Positions 8,353 to 24,167 of a stretch of DNA of 64,000 nucleotides are shown piece by piece (position 1 is the stretch's first letter; each line of letters begins with the position of its first letter). Location of the stretch: the NCBI GenBank assembly GCA_011526565.1, contig WYBL01000026.1:103928-167927 (forward strand), read 5' to 3'. The notes beneath the pieces were generated by a model that did no database searches, was not told the origin of the DNA, and saw nothing but the letters and a program-made list of their open reading frames with translations. Source of the stretch: Acidobacteriota bacterium. Lineage in GTDB: Bacteria; Acidobacteriota; Vicinamibacteria; Fen-336. The position numbers and the translations under genes were made by a program.

Positions 8353-9205
8353 TCCCCGAGTCTCCACCGGATTCCGCCGTTGATCACGCGGCCCTCGAGC
8401 GGGGCCCAGGCGTCCACCGTCCAGCGGCCGTCGACGGCGCGCGCGGGCCGCAGCAGCGGGTCCCACCCGGTCTGCCGCACGTTCGTCAGGTTCTCGCCGT
8501 TGACGAAGACGCTGACTCGGCCGAGACGACGCTCGGCCAGCAGGCCGATCACCACGTAGGGCTCGCTGCGCGCCCGGTACCGTCGCCGTCGACGTCCTGT
8601 TGCGACTGGCGGTGGCCGCCGGCCAGCAGCGTCGCCCCCGAGCGCTCGCCGAGCGGGCCCGAGAGCCACAGCACGCCGTCGCTGGCGTCGCGCGTCGACT
8701 GGTTGAGCAGCAGCTCGCGCGCGGCCTCGTCGCCGGGGCGGCGCGAGAGCAGGTTGACGACGCCGCCCATGGCACCGCCGCCGTAGAGCGCGGAGGCGAC
8801 TCCCTTGACCACCTCGACCTGGCCGAGGTCCATCGGCGGCACCTGCAGCAGGCCGAGGCCACCGGGAGCCATGCCGTGCAGCGGCAGGCCGTCGGCGAGG
8901 AAGCGGGTGTAGCGGCCGCGCAGGCCCTGGACGCGGATGCTGGCGGCGCCCAGCGAAGGCGAGGTCGCCTGCACGCGCAGGCCGCCCATCTCGTTGAGCA
9001 TCATGACCACGTCGCCCGGGGTCATGAGCATCTTCTCCTCGATCTCCTCGCGGGAGAGCACCTCGACCCGCAGCGGCTCCACCACCACCTCTTCTTCGTG
9101 GTGGATCGGCTCGGCGGGCTCGGGGCTCGGGGCGGGCTTCGGTTCGTCGGCCGCGAGGCCCGCCGCGACCGCGAGGGGCAGGGCAACGAGGAGCAGCGAC
9201 CTCAA
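8349..9205 (-). pseudogene. TonB-dependent receptor remnant: signal peptide plus plug domain joined by a frame shift to only the last barrel strands
   Basis: One frame (ending 8549) encodes LRSLLLVALPLAVAAGLAA...LSREEIEEK...GGLRVQATSPSLGAASIRVQGLRGRYTRFLADGLPLHG...VEVVKGVASALYGGGAMGGVVNL, i.e. plug-domain motifs. A second frame (8349..8669) encodes ...VSVFVNGENLTNV...DGRWTVDAWAPLEGRVINGGIRWRL, a TBDR C-terminal-like sequence. Together these total about 280 aa, against more than 650 aa for an intact receptor. Confidence 0.5.
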
Positions 9206-10128
9206 GGGGCGAAGGGGAGGTCGACGACTTCGGCGGCCGCGCCTGCGACTTCGACCCGGGTCCCGGGGGCGAAGTGGTTGCGGTGCACGTAGCCCAGCGC
9301 GATCGGCCCCAGCCGCGGCGAGACCGCGGCCGTCGTCACCCGCCCCACCTCGGCTCCGGCCACGGTGATCGTCGCCCCGGCCGTCGCCGCGGCGCCCAGG
9401 CGCAGGCCGCGAATCGCCTTGTTGACGTGGCCGCCGCGGCCCTCGAGGCGGGCGACCACCTCCTGGCCGACGTAGCAGCCCTTCGAGGCCGAGTGCAGTT
9501 CGTTCAGCAGGCCCGTCTCGTGGAGCAGGTTGTCTTCGGTGACGTCCACGCCGTACCACGGCCGGCCGGCCTCGACCCGGGCGAGGTCGAACGCCTCGCG
9601 CGACAGCGGCGCCGCGCCGGCCGCGGCGAGGGCCGTCGTCAGGGCCGCTTCGCCCTCGGGCTCGACGTGGAGGACGAAGCTGCCCCCGGGGATGTCGCCG
9701 GCGCGGGCGACGCGCACCGCCTGCTCGCCCAGGGTCGTGCGGGCATGGCGCTCTGCTCCGGACTCCGGGACCGCGAGCCCGGCCGCGCGCAGCACGTCCT
9801 CGGCGCCGGCCCCGAGCAGCGCCAGCACGCGTGTCGCGGGCCGCGCGAAGCGCACCGGGGCGGCCACCTTGTAGTGGTTGAACAGGGCCTCGAGCCGCTC
9901 GGCGCGGTCGGCCGGCACCTCGAGCACGACCGGGTTCTCCTCGACCAGCACCCGCAGCAGCGCGAGCAGCTTGCCCTTGACGTCCATCAGCGCGGCCCGC
10001 CGGCCATGGCCGGGCGCGAGACCCGCGACGTCGTTCGACAGCAGCCCGTGCAGGAACTTCACGCGCTGGGGGCCGGTGGCGAGGATCAGCGAGCGCTCGG
10101 GGAGCGCGAGGTAGGTGGCGTCCTTCAT
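9202..10128 (-). CDS. ygfZ: Folate-binding YgfZ/CAF17-family protein (aminomethyltransferase/GcvT-like fold)
   Basis: It has GcvT-like motifs. These are LSNDVAGLAPGHGRRAALMDVKGKLL, the KGCYVGQEVVARL signature near the C-terminus, and GRVTTAAVSPRLGPIALGYV. Confidence 0.75.
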   Translation of the reverse strand: MKDATYLALPERSLILATGPQRVKFLHGLLSNDVAGLAPGHGRRAALMDVKGKLLALLRVLVEENPVVLEVPADRAERLEALFNHYKVAAPVRFARPATRVLALLGAGAEDVLRAAGLAVPESGAERHARTTLGEQAVRVARAGDIPGGSFVLHVEPEGEAALTTALAAAGAAPLSREAFDLARVEAGRPWYGVDVTEDNLLHETGLLNELHSASKGCYVGQEVVARLEGRGGHVNKAIRGLRLGAAATAGATITVAGAEVGRVTTAAVSPRLGPIALGYVHRNHFAPGTRVEVAGAAAEVVDLPFAP

Positions 10129-22530: not shown

Positions 22531-24167
22531 GACAGCAACCGGCCGTTCGCCAGGTGTCGCACGACGTCCGCGTGCTGAGCGACCTCCAGGTCGTGGCTGG
22601 CCATCACGATGGCCGGGGTCCACGCGAGGGAATCCAGGCGCTCCAGCAGGGCGCGCGACGCCGCCCGCGAAAGGTGGTTGGTGGGCTCGTCGAGCAGCAG
22701 CAGGGCCGGCCGTGCCAGCAGCGCGCGCGACAGCGCGAGCTGCTGGCGCTGGCCGCCGGACAGCCGCGCGCCCTCCTCGCCCGCCGGGGCCTCGAGGCCG
22801 CCGGGCAGGTCGCCCAGCCAGGCGTCCAGGCCGGCGAGCCGCACCGCCTCGTCGACGGCGTCCGCGGTCGCCTCGGGCCGGCCGAACGTGATGTTGTCCC
22901 GCAGGCTGCCGGGCAGCAGGACCGGGTCCTGGGACATGTAGCCGATGCGCCCCCGGAGGTGGGGCAGGTCGAGTTCCGACTGGTCGTGGCCGCCCGCGAA
23001 CGCAGTGCCGGCCGTCGGCTGGATCAGGCCTGCCAGCAGTCGCAGCAGCGTGCTCTTGCCGGCGCCGATCGGGCCGACGATCGCGACGCACTGCCCGGGG
23101 CCCACGACGAGATCCACCTCGCGCAGGACGGTGCGCTCGCCCCACGCGAACGCGACGCCGCGCAGTTCCACGCGGCCATCGAACTCCTCCAGGCGGAGGA
23201 GGCCTCCGGCCGGCGGCTCGGGTGCGTCGAGCAGGTCGAAGAGCGAACGCAGCGACGTGTCGGCTTCGGCGAGGGGCGGGAGGCTCGAGAGCACGGCGCT
23301 CGCCGGTCCCCGCAGCAGGGCCAGGCCCGCGAAGAAGCCGGCCAGTTCCTCGAGCGTGAGTTCTGCCCGGGCGACGGCCAGCGCCCCCGCCACGAGCATC
23401 GCCGTGCTGCCGAGCCCGACCAGCGCCTGCTGCACGCCGCGGCCGCGCTCCGCCAGTTCGAGGGCGCGGCCCGAAGCCACCGTCAGCCGCAGCAGCACGC
23501 CGCGCTGCCGCTCGAGCAGCCATGCGCCGGCGCCGTGCGCGTGGACGAGGCCGAGCCCGCGCAAGCCCTGCAGGACGGCCTGGCTGAAGGCCAGGTACGC
23601 CCGGTTCCGCTGCGCTGCCGCGACGCGCAGGGCCGGTGCGAGGCGCCGCTCGGAGAGGACGAACGGCGGCACCAGCACCACCAGCGCCAGCACCAGGCGC
23701 GCGTCGAATGCGAGCAGAGCGAGGGCCAGCCCCGCGGTCGCCGCGGCGCCGGGCAGCAGCTCGGCCAGCACGACGCGCCCCGCGGCATCGATGCGCTCGG
23801 TCTCGTGGACGACGCCGTCGTGAAGGTCGGCGCTGCCGTGGGCCTCCGCGCGCAGCGGGCCGAGCGCCAGCAGCTTGCGCAGCCCCTCCTCGCGCAGCTC
23901 CGCGGTCACCTCCCGCACCGCGGCGTGGACCCGGGCCCGGCTCTGGAGGTGAATCAGCCCGCCCAGCGCCTGCAGCAGCAGCACCGCGAAGCCGGAAATC
24001 GCCAGCTCCGTCCACGGGTCCCCGGAGCGGCCCTGCGACAGCGTGCGCTCCACCAGGAGCGGGATCGGGACCAGCGTCGCGACCCGCGCGAGAGCCGCCA
24101 GCACGGCCCACGCCATCAGCCGCCGCGGACGGGAGAAGCGGCTCGCGTAGCGGTGCCAGGGGCTCAA
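22527..24167 (-). CDS. Fused ABC exporter (6-TM permease plus ATPase; lasso D-protein-like / type I exporter)
   Basis: Walker A GPIGAGKST. ABC signature LSGGQRQQLALSRAL. Walker B LLLLDEPT. It has an N-terminal TMD. The TTG start overlaps the Asn-synthetase stop (gcTTGAgccc). Confidence 0.85.
   Translation of the reverse strand: MSPWHRYASRFSRPRRLMAWAVLAALARVATLVPIPLLVERTLSQGRSGDPWTELAISGFAVLLLQALGGLIHLQSRARVHAAVREVTAELREEGLRKLLALGPLRAEAHGSADLHDGVVHETERIDAAGRVVLAELLPGAAATAGLALALLAFDARLVLALVVLVPPFVLSERRLAPALRVAAAQRNRAYLAFSQAVLQGLRGLGLVHAHGAGAWLLERQRGVLLRLTVASGRALELAERGRGVQQALVGLGSTAMLVAGALAVARAELTLEELAGFFAGLALLRGPASAVLSSLPPLAEADTSLRSLFDLLDAPEPPAGGLLRLEEFDGRVELRGVAFAWGERTVLREVDLVVGPGQCVAIVGPIGAGKSTLLRLLAGLIQPTAGTAFAGGHDQSELDLPHLRGRIGYMSQDPVLLPGSLRDNITFGRPEATADAVDEAVRLAGLDAWLGDLPGGLEAPAGEEGARLSGGQRQQLALSRALLARPALLLLDEPTNHLSRAASRALLERLDSLAWTPAIVMASHDLEVAQHADVVRHLANGRLLS

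Follow-up and report, generated by a model that had tools for sequence, protein, structure and literature searches.

Four pairs of adjacent genes on the minus strand of the 64-kb stretch of DNA analysed here (the window, ~74% GC), three of them in an uncharacterised PqqD / HprK-related / AsnB / glycosyltransferase cluster, are joined by a TTGA tetranucleotide; at each junction the upstream gene, which ends in TGA, and the downstream gene, which opens at an in-frame NTG, share exactly 4 nt. Taken as a whole, these junctions are very probably four ordinary -4 nt NTGA overlaps in operons of an acidobacterium, itself probably a member of the class Vicinamibacteria, with the downstream genes truly TTG-started and the octamer found at the three cluster junctions, TTGAGCCC, coincidental. 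The main yield is a set of corrected N-termini and, with them, an annotation lesson; the junctions reveal no new element or mechanism.

Layout and frequency of the NTGA overlaps

When the window sequence is read directly, TTGA is found at 24167, 22530, 17666 and 9205, always on the minus strand. The first junction (24164..24167, gcTTGAgcccctgg) joins an AsnB-like amidotransferase gene (24164-25930, stop TGA) to an ABC exporter gene (22527-24167, start TTG, 546 aa), whose own TGA overlaps at 22527..22530 (tcTTGAgcccgcga) the TTG of a gene for a membrane SGNH/AlgX-like protein (20863-22530, 555 aa). The third (17663..17666, cgaTTGAgcccgcg) lies between the TGA of a PqqD-family gene (17663-18073, with its start at either 18073 or 18019) and the TTG of the glycosyltransferase gene GT2a (16962-17666, 234 aa). 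At the fourth (9202..9205, ccTTGAggtc), the TGA of a YgfZ/GCV_T folate-binding protein gene (9202-10128) meets the TTG of a truncated TonB-dependent receptor (TBDR) gene (8549-9205), which encodes a signal peptide and a Plug domain. Adjacent pairs are co-directional, and all eight genes at the four junctions have Pfam/NCBIfam matches. A preliminary description of this DNA had placed a TTG start one base ahead of the upstream TGA at these four junctions, identified the genes and given the N-termini as LSPRVSV (GT2a), LSPWHRY (ABC exporter) and LSPRVPT (SGNH protein); the sequence at the four positions, the Pfam profiles (Asn_synthase, ABC_tran/ABC_membrane, ALGX/GDSL, PqqD, Glycos_transf_2, GCV_T, Plug) and the predicted translations from TTG agree with it on these points.

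The same overlap recurs in the window with other bases ahead of the TGA. GT2a and GT2b (16234-16965) overlap by ATGA at 16962..16965 on the minus strand, in the same operon and with the same layout as PqqD and GT2a but with a canonical start codon, and on the plus strand a GTGA at 19796..19799 joins an HprK-related kinase gene (18855-19799) to a GT4 glycosyltransferase gene (19796-20884). Further minus-strand overlaps are a GTGA at 8349..8352, between the C-terminal fragment of the TBDR and a cob(I)alamin adenosyltransferase gene (7810-8352), and an ATGA at 7506..7509, between the genes for a GIY-YIG protein and a 79-aa protein, which is GTGA in orthologs. The window also has a TGATG junction at 12169 and another at 62010.

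TTGA occurs at gene ends beyond chance. Third codon positions in the window are C in 51.7%, G in 43.1%, T in 2.7% and A in 2.5% of cases, and of the seven TTGA that the minus strand has from 9000 to 26000, four are the stop/start junctions. The motif accounts for 4 of the 14 NTGA overlaps in the window versus 2 of 33 (~6%) in other high-GC loci; this background, also used for TGA stops, includes distant SGNH-homolog loci from other phyla (L012-L066), in which the operon is absent and which served for the tally only.

Start codons of the downstream genes

Protein-level conservation, accompanied by synonymous changes, begins directly after the NTG. The N-termini of the ABC exporter in the window and in L007 align as S/N-P-W-H/R-R-Y-A-S, with the codon changes CCC>CCG, CGT>CGC and CCG>CCC. 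In the TTG-started proteins, matches to family profiles set in at residues 2-6: position 1 of PF00535 falls on residue 6 of GT2a and position 1 of PF13641 on its residue 3, while position 2 of the MsbA profile falls on residue 4 of the ABC exporter. For the Plug protein, a signal peptide is obtained from the TTG start only; there is no other start in the 702 codons upstream, and downstream there is none before codon +39. GT2a has no other in-frame start in the 307 codons upstream.

The junctions were also compared with their orthologs, the material consisting of the window and, in related contigs, of at most 10 kb of flank on either side of the matched gene; the ortholog set is small, with three other lineages (L007, L011 and L033) at 63-96% protein identity. 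Cluster gene order is kept in all three, and the 4-nt NTGA overlap is kept at the same position in every orthologous cluster found. The AsnB-ABC exporter junction reads TTGA in the window and L033 and GTGA in L007 and L011, and the ABC exporter-SGNH junction reads TTGA in the window, ATGA in L033/L009 and GTGA in L007 and L011/L008. Between PqqD and GT2a the motif is TTGA in all four lineages, between the kinase and GT4 it is GTGA in all four, and between GT2a and GT2b it is ATGA in two and GTGA in two. Over the five cluster junctions in four lineages, the base ahead of TGA is T seven times, G ten times, A three times and never C, a base with which the start would be lost. PqqD ends at its junction with GT2a in the rare codon GAT (Asp), whose last base can only be T or C if the residue is to stay the same; given a conserved C-terminal Asp (GAT/GAC), TTG is the sole usable start. 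Comparing orthologs for the base ahead of TGA (A, G or T, never C) is a cheap and decisive test for real overlapping starts.

The YgfZ-TBDR junction is TTGA in four sequences from three lineages, L070/L071 (99% strains), L068 (93%) and L067 (86%), among which the last YgfZ codon is CCT, CTT or TCT and the T is retained throughout. This rare T is kept, against third positions of ~95% G+C, even at a fourfold-degenerate site. The receptor is intact in L068 and L067 (650-651 aa), and the GTGA between its C-terminal part and the adenosyltransferase gene is shared by the window, L068 and L067. In the more distant L069 and L008, YgfZ ends in CTGA and an ATG follows 14 nt downstream. Together, the comparisons argue that the downstream proteins really begin at the TTG codons.

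The alternative that fares best against these data, although quite improbable, is that the downstream genes start at the next in-frame ATG or GTG (24116 for the ABC exporter, 22518 for the SGNH protein, 17648 or 17642 for GT2a) and that TTGA is incidental. TTG is usually the rarest start codon in bacteria, and the starts annotated publicly for the same strain are indeed ATG+17, GTG+4 and ATG+8, giving proteins of 529, 551 and 226 aa. However, the preliminary description had named downstream ATG or GTG codons with better Shine-Dalgarno support as evidence against TTG initiation, and these alternatives, when checked, have no Shine-Dalgarno sequence and are not start codons in orthologs: ATG+17 of the ABC exporter is CTG in L007 and L011, GTG+4 of the SGNH protein is GTT in L007 and CTG in L011, and GTG+6 of GT2a is GTC in L011, whereas the overlap NTG is always a start codon. 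The residues lost by the later starts are conserved and aligned to family profiles; in GT2a, both GTG+6 and ATG+8 cut into the first beta-strand, VSVLMP, which ATG+8 would remove. Moreover, public calls in the ortholog loci begin at the overlap position at the ABC exporter-SGNH junction, and those for L007 take the overlap start at all three cluster junctions, including TTG for GT2a.

With the TTG codons as starts, the same-strain public entries are shortened by 17 residues in the ABC exporter, 4 in the SGNH protein and 8, including the first beta-strand, in GT2a. These calls fit a caller bias against TTG, a codon that gene callers avoid in very high-GC genomes. The codon-score gene caller used in this analysis also avoided it, as so little score comes from the first few codons, and its start choices were excluded from the evidence.

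The shared octamer

The preliminary description had pointed out that the three cluster junctions share TTGAGCCC, and the only three copies in the 64 kb, counting both strands, do sit there. Shuffled sequences contain 1.55 copies on average and at least three in 23 of 100 cases, so that the number of copies is not unusual in itself. Under a naive null, the sharing of 4 nt after TTGA has p ~2e-4 if the three junctions are pre-specified and p ~2e-3 for at least three of the five cluster NTGA junctions; for at least three of all 14 such junctions that the window contains it has p ~0.065. The identity of the four bases following TTGA does not convincingly exceed chance.

A functional or duplicated DNA or RNA element (TTGAGCCC at the three cluster junctions), be it a copied cassette, a scar of recombination or a motif for binding or re-initiation, is most unlikely. 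Such an element would agree with the confinement of the three copies to junctions, with the naive probabilities, with an 11-nt string common to two junctions (TTGAGCCCGCG, coding SPRV in both) and with the enrichment of TGAGCCC at TGA stops, 6 of 39 in the window versus 5 of 137 in other high-GC loci. However, the octamer varies in orthologs, where GTGAATCC, GTGAGCGG, ATGAGCTC, GTGAGCCC, GTGACGCC, TTGAACCC and TTGACCCC are found; the sister lineage carries ATGAGCTC at the ABC exporter-SGNH junction, and TTGAGCCC is absent from the L007 and L011 loci. There is no likeness beyond the octamer, since the 48 nt on either side of the junctions align with background similarity only, and a direct-repeat search yielded the tandem paralogy of GT2a and GT2b alone, with the junctions outside the 20 largest families listed. 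In addition to the figure obtained with all 14 junctions as reference, it also counts against an element that GCCCGCG is common in the window (166 occurrences), that Pro at residue 3 is absent from the other NTGA-started proteins in the window, and that no specific sequence near the stop/start strongly affects coupling (PMC12548453), a randomised-library study being cited there for the lack of a strong sequence requirement near coupled stop/start sites. The earlier suggestion of a shared, duplicated junction within the cluster is not borne out by the varying octamer, the unlike flanks and the listed repeat families.

These comparisons indicate that TTGAGCCC is a lineage-specific coincidence and not a repeated element. 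The identical octamer would result from the fixed TTGA, a second codon that has to begin with A (here AGC, Ser) and a third codon for Pro, this Pro probably being part of each protein's own N-terminus. Pro is found at residue 3 in 10 of 12 ortholog N-termini, and in the two GT2 paralogs P-x-VSV stands ahead of the first strand. The naive probabilities, together with this frequency of Pro, leave a small chance of a weak sequence preference at cluster junctions. Gene conversion as the source of the alike SGNH and GT2a N-termini (SPRV here, TPRL/TPRI in L011) was rejected, as the codons differ (ACG versus ACC).

Probable translational coupling at the junctions

It is extremely improbable that fusions, for instance of AsnB with the ABC exporter, arise at the junctions by programmed -1 frameshifting or read-through. 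As at frameshift sites, the downstream gene lies in the -1 frame of the upstream gene, and its frame stays open over long distances upstream (224, 563 and 307 codons). However, at 74% GC long alternative reading frames are to be expected, the junctions (GCC GCT TGA, CTG TCT TGA and CTC GAT TGA) lack both a slippery heptamer (X XXY YYZ) and a stimulatory structure, their 80-nt folds are unremarkable against dinucleotide shuffles (z -1.55 to +0.61, all segments folding strongly at this GC content), and an A, G or T, never C, ahead of TGA, with the overlapping codon acting as a start across lineages, is the signature of a start codon and not of a shift site.

For the overlapping TTG starts, none of GGAGG, GGAG, GAGG or AGGA is found 4-12 nt upstream of the four codons, and the AsnB-ABC exporter junction has a GGGG at spacing 8 and nothing stronger. 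An independent ribosome-binding site is weak or absent at all four downstream starts; GGAGG or GGAG is present at some 10 other genes of the window. A promoter/terminator scan of 15000-26500 found none, which is compatible with uninterrupted operons and in itself uninformative.

The preliminary description had proposed tight translational coupling; the stop/start layout is the classic one for it, a reading that the junction anatomy supports, and coupling is the likely mechanism. A ribosome terminating at UGA would re-initiate on the overlapping UUG, or would unfold the site for a new ribosome, and the downstream protein would be made in step with the upstream one, and would require no separate Shine-Dalgarno sequence. 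In the unfolding variant an inhibitory structure would mask the start; the 80-nt folds around the junctions, no more stable than those of shuffles, come from DNA in which every segment folds strongly. The start codon and the last sense codon upstream have one base in common, the first of the former and the third of the latter. Between lineages this base drifts among T, G and A through synonymous or conservative changes, and never to C; at the YgfZ-TBDR junction the T is retained while the codon itself changes. Three operons of the cluster seem to be laid out for coupled translation.

No spacing motif is commoner in prokaryotes than NTGA (PMC12548453), ATGA, GTGA and TTGA have all been named as 4-nt overlaps (PMC3887535), and mixed motifs including TTGA occur in orthologous clusters (bioRxiv 10.64898/2026.09.10.750558); NTGA overlaps, TTGA and mixed ortholog motifs included, are already described. 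Coupling of NTGA pairs by termination-reinitiation is known from E. coli and Haloferax (PMC6728339, Huber et al. 2019). The junctions described here resemble such -4 nt coupled pairs (PMC6728339; PMC12548453) in that: (i) they join co-directional operon genes, with TGA sharing two bases with NTG, (ii) their position is conserved in orthologs, with little or no separate Shine-Dalgarno sequence, and (iii) overlaps follow one another within an operon (AsnB-ABC exporter-SGNH; PqqD-GT2a-GT2b). They differ in that N is T, where it is usually A or G, and in that their coupling is a predicted one. They are also one more example, with no difference in kind, of the turnover of short overlaps by start/stop disruption and replacement (PMC3887535), one and the same junction being TTGA, GTGA or ATGA by lineage, as in the mixed motifs of the bioRxiv study, and the CTGA with a downstream ATG of distant relatives corresponding to a TTGA overlap between YgfZ and TBDR in this clade. 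The E. coli trpE-trpD pair, cited in PMC12548453 as the classical -1 nt TGATG coupling, follows the same logic of stop/start proximity, in another register and with ATG instead of TTG.

It is conceivable, if rather doubtful, that TTG at -4 overlaps is actively maintained in a Vicinamibacteria-like clade, where a weak start for re-initiating ribosomes would set expression ratios; the retained T at the end of YgfZ and the share of TTGA among the window's overlaps would suit such maintenance. As a weaker corollary, a Ser/Thr/Asn-Pro start may favour re-initiation.

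Start codons at the four junctions

In the window, whose G+C content is ~74%, TTGA occurs seven times on the minus strand between 9000 and 26000, and four of these copies are stop/start junctions, at 24167 (AsnB to ABC exporter), 22530 (ABC exporter to SGNH protein), 17666 (PqqD to GT2a) and 9205 (YgfZ to TBDR). The junctions and flanking bases given in the preliminary description match the sequence, as do its predicted N-termini LSPWHRY (ABC), LSPRVPT (SGNH) and LSPRVSV (GT2a); that at the fourth junction is LRSLLLV. Its gene identities were also upheld: a glutamine-hydrolysing Asn-synthase-family protein (AsnB) lies upstream of an ABC exporter with a fused membrane domain, followed by a membrane-anchored SGNH/AlgX-like protein; a PqqD-family protein precedes GT2a, which with GT2b forms a tandem pair of GT2 glycosyltransferases; and a YgfZ/GCV_T protein precedes a Plug-domain fragment of a TonB-dependent receptor (TBDR). 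The four junctions are ordinary biology, correctly observed, and their practical value lies in the corrected N-termini of three proteins that are shortened in public gene calls.

Public automated calls on the loci L001 and L003 (both the window's strain) and on L008 and L009 avoid the TTG starts and shorten the proteins (ABC 529 instead of 546 aa, SGNH 551 instead of 555, GT2a 226-227 instead of 234); for the identical strain, ABC is called from ATG+17, SGNH from GTG+4 and GT2a from ATG+8 (codons counted downstream of TTG). Such alternatives do lie nearby for ABC and SGNH. For GT2a, the 307 codons upstream of TTG hold no other in-frame start, and the next ones downstream, GTG+6 and ATG+8, would clip or remove the first beta-strand (VSVLMP); for the Plug protein, no other start exists in 702 upstream codons, and starting at the next downstream one (+39) would cost the protein a typical signal peptide. 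The preliminary description had named downstream ATG/GTG codons with better Shine-Dalgarno support as a refutation, and such a motif was absent from every alternative start examined. Nor are the alternatives conserved: ABC ATG+17 reads CTG in L007 and L011, SGNH GTG+4 reads GTT in L007 and CTG in L011, and GT2a GTG+6 reads GTC in L011. In ortholog comparisons, amino-acid conservation with synonymous third-position changes sets in at codon 2; when the proteins are started at TTG, alignments to their family profiles begin at residues 2-6, and on contig L007 the JGI gene calls place the starts at the overlaps, with TTG chosen for GT2a. This comparative evidence is decisive in favor of the predicted TTG codons as the real starts.

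A candidate non-overlapping TTG start was observed at 41990 (minus strand; gene 39759-41990), with GGAGG 6 nt upstream and a signal-peptide-like N-terminus (LRFSPFAAAALAATL), which suggests that the organism also uses TTG with a Shine-Dalgarno sequence.

Conservation of the overlap and probable translational coupling

Three of the junctions lie in a conserved cluster (~12500-26800) comprising AsnB, with its N-terminal Cys intact, the ABC exporter, the membrane SGNH/AlgX-like protein, GT4, an HprK-related kinase (weak TIGR04352 and ScmC matches), a weakly assigned Peptidase_S51-like protein, PqqD, the two GT2 and NTP_transf_5; sugar-nucleotide genes adjoin it, and it has no obvious precursor-peptide gene. 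The best NCBIfam matches, which all fall under the curated cut-offs, are to the 'HPr-rel-A' trio and to polysaccharide loci of PEP-CTERM/XrtA type. A search with the SGNH protein returned nine homologs, with orthologs of 83%, 77% and 63% identity among them. Their contigs, a genome scan and a metagenome scan together yielded three further lineages: L033/L034/L009, L007 (L067 is from the same contig) and L011/L008 (the title of L011 names it a Vicinamibacteria MAG). Each of the three has the complete cluster with its gene order unchanged; among the loci found, it occurs only in these four Vicinamibacteria-like lineages.

Across five junctions and four lineages the 4-nt overlap (NTGA) is invariant and its first base variable. 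PqqD>GT2a is TTGA and HprK>GT4 is GTGA in all four; AsnB>ABC is TTGA in the window and L033, GTGA in L007 and L011; ABC>SGNH is TTGA in the window, ATGA in L033 and GTGA in the other two; and GT2a>GT2b is ATGA in the window and L033, GTGA in L007 and L011. Before TGA, T thus stands in 7 cases, G in 10, A in 3 and C in none, despite C occupying 51.7% of third codon positions in the window (T 2.7%, A 2.5%), which indicates selection for a base that makes up a start codon.

Each start codon shares its first base with the upstream gene, whose last sense codon ends on it. At AsnB>ABC that last sense codon is GCT or GCG (Ala) among lineages, and at ABC>SGNH it is TCT, TCG, CCG or GCA, so that TTG versus GTG/ATG amounts to a synonymous or conservative change. 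At PqqD>GT2a it encodes a conserved C-terminal Asp (GQLD*), for which GAT gives TTG and GAC gives CTG, no start; GAT makes up 7.6% of Asp codons in the window, yet is kept in 4/4 lineages. Of the window's rare A/T at fourfold sites, the L007 lineage keeps only 10/51; the persistent T at PqqD>GT2a and YgfZ>TBDR is therefore a mild hint that T itself is selected, a weak signal from single sites. TTGA is somewhat over-represented among -4 overlaps in the window (ATGA 5, GTGA 5, TTGA 4) compared with unrelated high-GC loci under the same crude criterion (GTGA 19, ATGA 12, TTGA 2), although the numbers are small.

NTGA is the commonest prokaryotic stop/start spacing (PMC12548453), ATGA, GTGA and TTGA are each explicitly recognised (PMC3887535), and motif mixtures in orthologous clusters, rare TTGA included, have been catalogued (bioRxiv 10.64898/2026.09.10.750558). 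Coupling at -4 overlap pairs, demonstrated experimentally in E. coli and Haloferax (PMC6728339) and reviewed in PMC12548453, is likely for the window's pairs as well, being the best-supported and standard reading; it would proceed through re-initiation by the terminating ribosome or unfolding of the site. No GGAGG-like motif at suitable spacing precedes any of the four TTG codons, while ~10 other genes in the window carry one; local RNA folding at the junctions is not stronger than in shuffled sequence, and no promoter- or terminator-like sites were found interrupting the operons. Frameshift or fusion sites are excluded, because the junctions lack a slippery site and the overlapping triplet behaves as a start codon.

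Convergent 3' overlaps, both kept in ortholog gene calls, join SGNH/GT4 (22 nt, 20863-20884) and GT2b/NTP_transf_5 (17 nt, 16234-16250). The ATGs of the longest PqqD ORF (18073, minus) and the S51-like ORF (18097, plus) diverge 23 nt apart; some public calls start PqqD at GTG 18019.

The octamer shared by three junctions

The window contains three copies of TTGAGCCC (both strands), each of them at a cluster junction. Shuffled sequences hold 1.55 copies on average and at least three in 23/100, so the count alone is unremarkable. Past TTGA, the identity consists of codon 2, AGC (A-initial by necessity), and the first two bases of a Pro codon. The simulated chance of sharing these next 4 nt, with in-frame A-initial codons, was 2e-4 for three pre-specified junctions, 2e-3 for at least 3/5 junctions and 0.065 for at least 3/14 NTGA junctions in the window. 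The Pro plausibly belongs to the individual proteins: P-x-VSV precedes the first strand in both GT2 paralogs, and Pro at residue 3 is absent from the window's other NTGA starts.

A shared duplicated junction, as proposed earlier, is unsupported. Orthologs read GTGAATCC and GTGAGCGG at AsnB>ABC, ATGAGCTC, GTGAGCCC and GTGACGCC at ABC>SGNH, and TTGAACCC and TTGACCCC at PqqD>GT2a, which restricts the triple identity to the window's lineage; the junction flanks are similar at background level only, and a repeat search reported nothing at the junctions. A recombination scar or dedicated motif is likewise not supported, and the sharing of the octamer is a coincidence. GT2a/GT2b themselves form a tandem duplication (direct repeats 16664-16938 and 17374-17648; 173 nt + 74 nt, 72-77% identical, spacing 710 nt), whose similarity ends before the octamer.

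Six of the seven TGAGCCC occurrences in the window are gene stops: 58862 (+), 26808 (-), 16236 (-) and the three TTGA junctions. It marks 6/39 TGA stops in the window versus 5/137 in unrelated high-GC loci, a slight enrichment that may reflect a mild stop-context preference, or chance.

The YgfZ junction and the receptor remnant

Orthologs of the fourth junction came from a YgfZ protein search and the contigs of its matches. TTGA is present in L070/L071 (99% strains), L068 (93%) and L067 (86%); the last YgfZ codon (CCT, CCT, CTT and TCT, respectively) keeps its T while the remainder varies. The distant L069 and L008 have CTGA with a separate ATG 14 nt downstream, which indicates that the overlap arose within the window's clade.

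In L068 and L067 the receptor is intact (650-651 aa) and called from the overlapping TTG. Against the 651-aa L068 ortholog, the TBDR sequence at 8349-9205 (minus) is a genuine remnant, with flanks 98-99% identical, an out-of-frame internal deletion of 1,063 bp and a 36-nt in-frame difference; what is left is a 218-aa ORF with signal peptide and Plug domain and, in a different frame, a C-terminal barrel fragment of 68 aa. The large deletion, with both Plug ORF and 68-aa fragment, recurs in the 99%-identical L070 and L071, assembled from other samples, and is therefore not an assembly artefact; in these strains the Plug ORF has 230 aa, and the 36-nt in-frame difference accounts for the 218 aa in the window.
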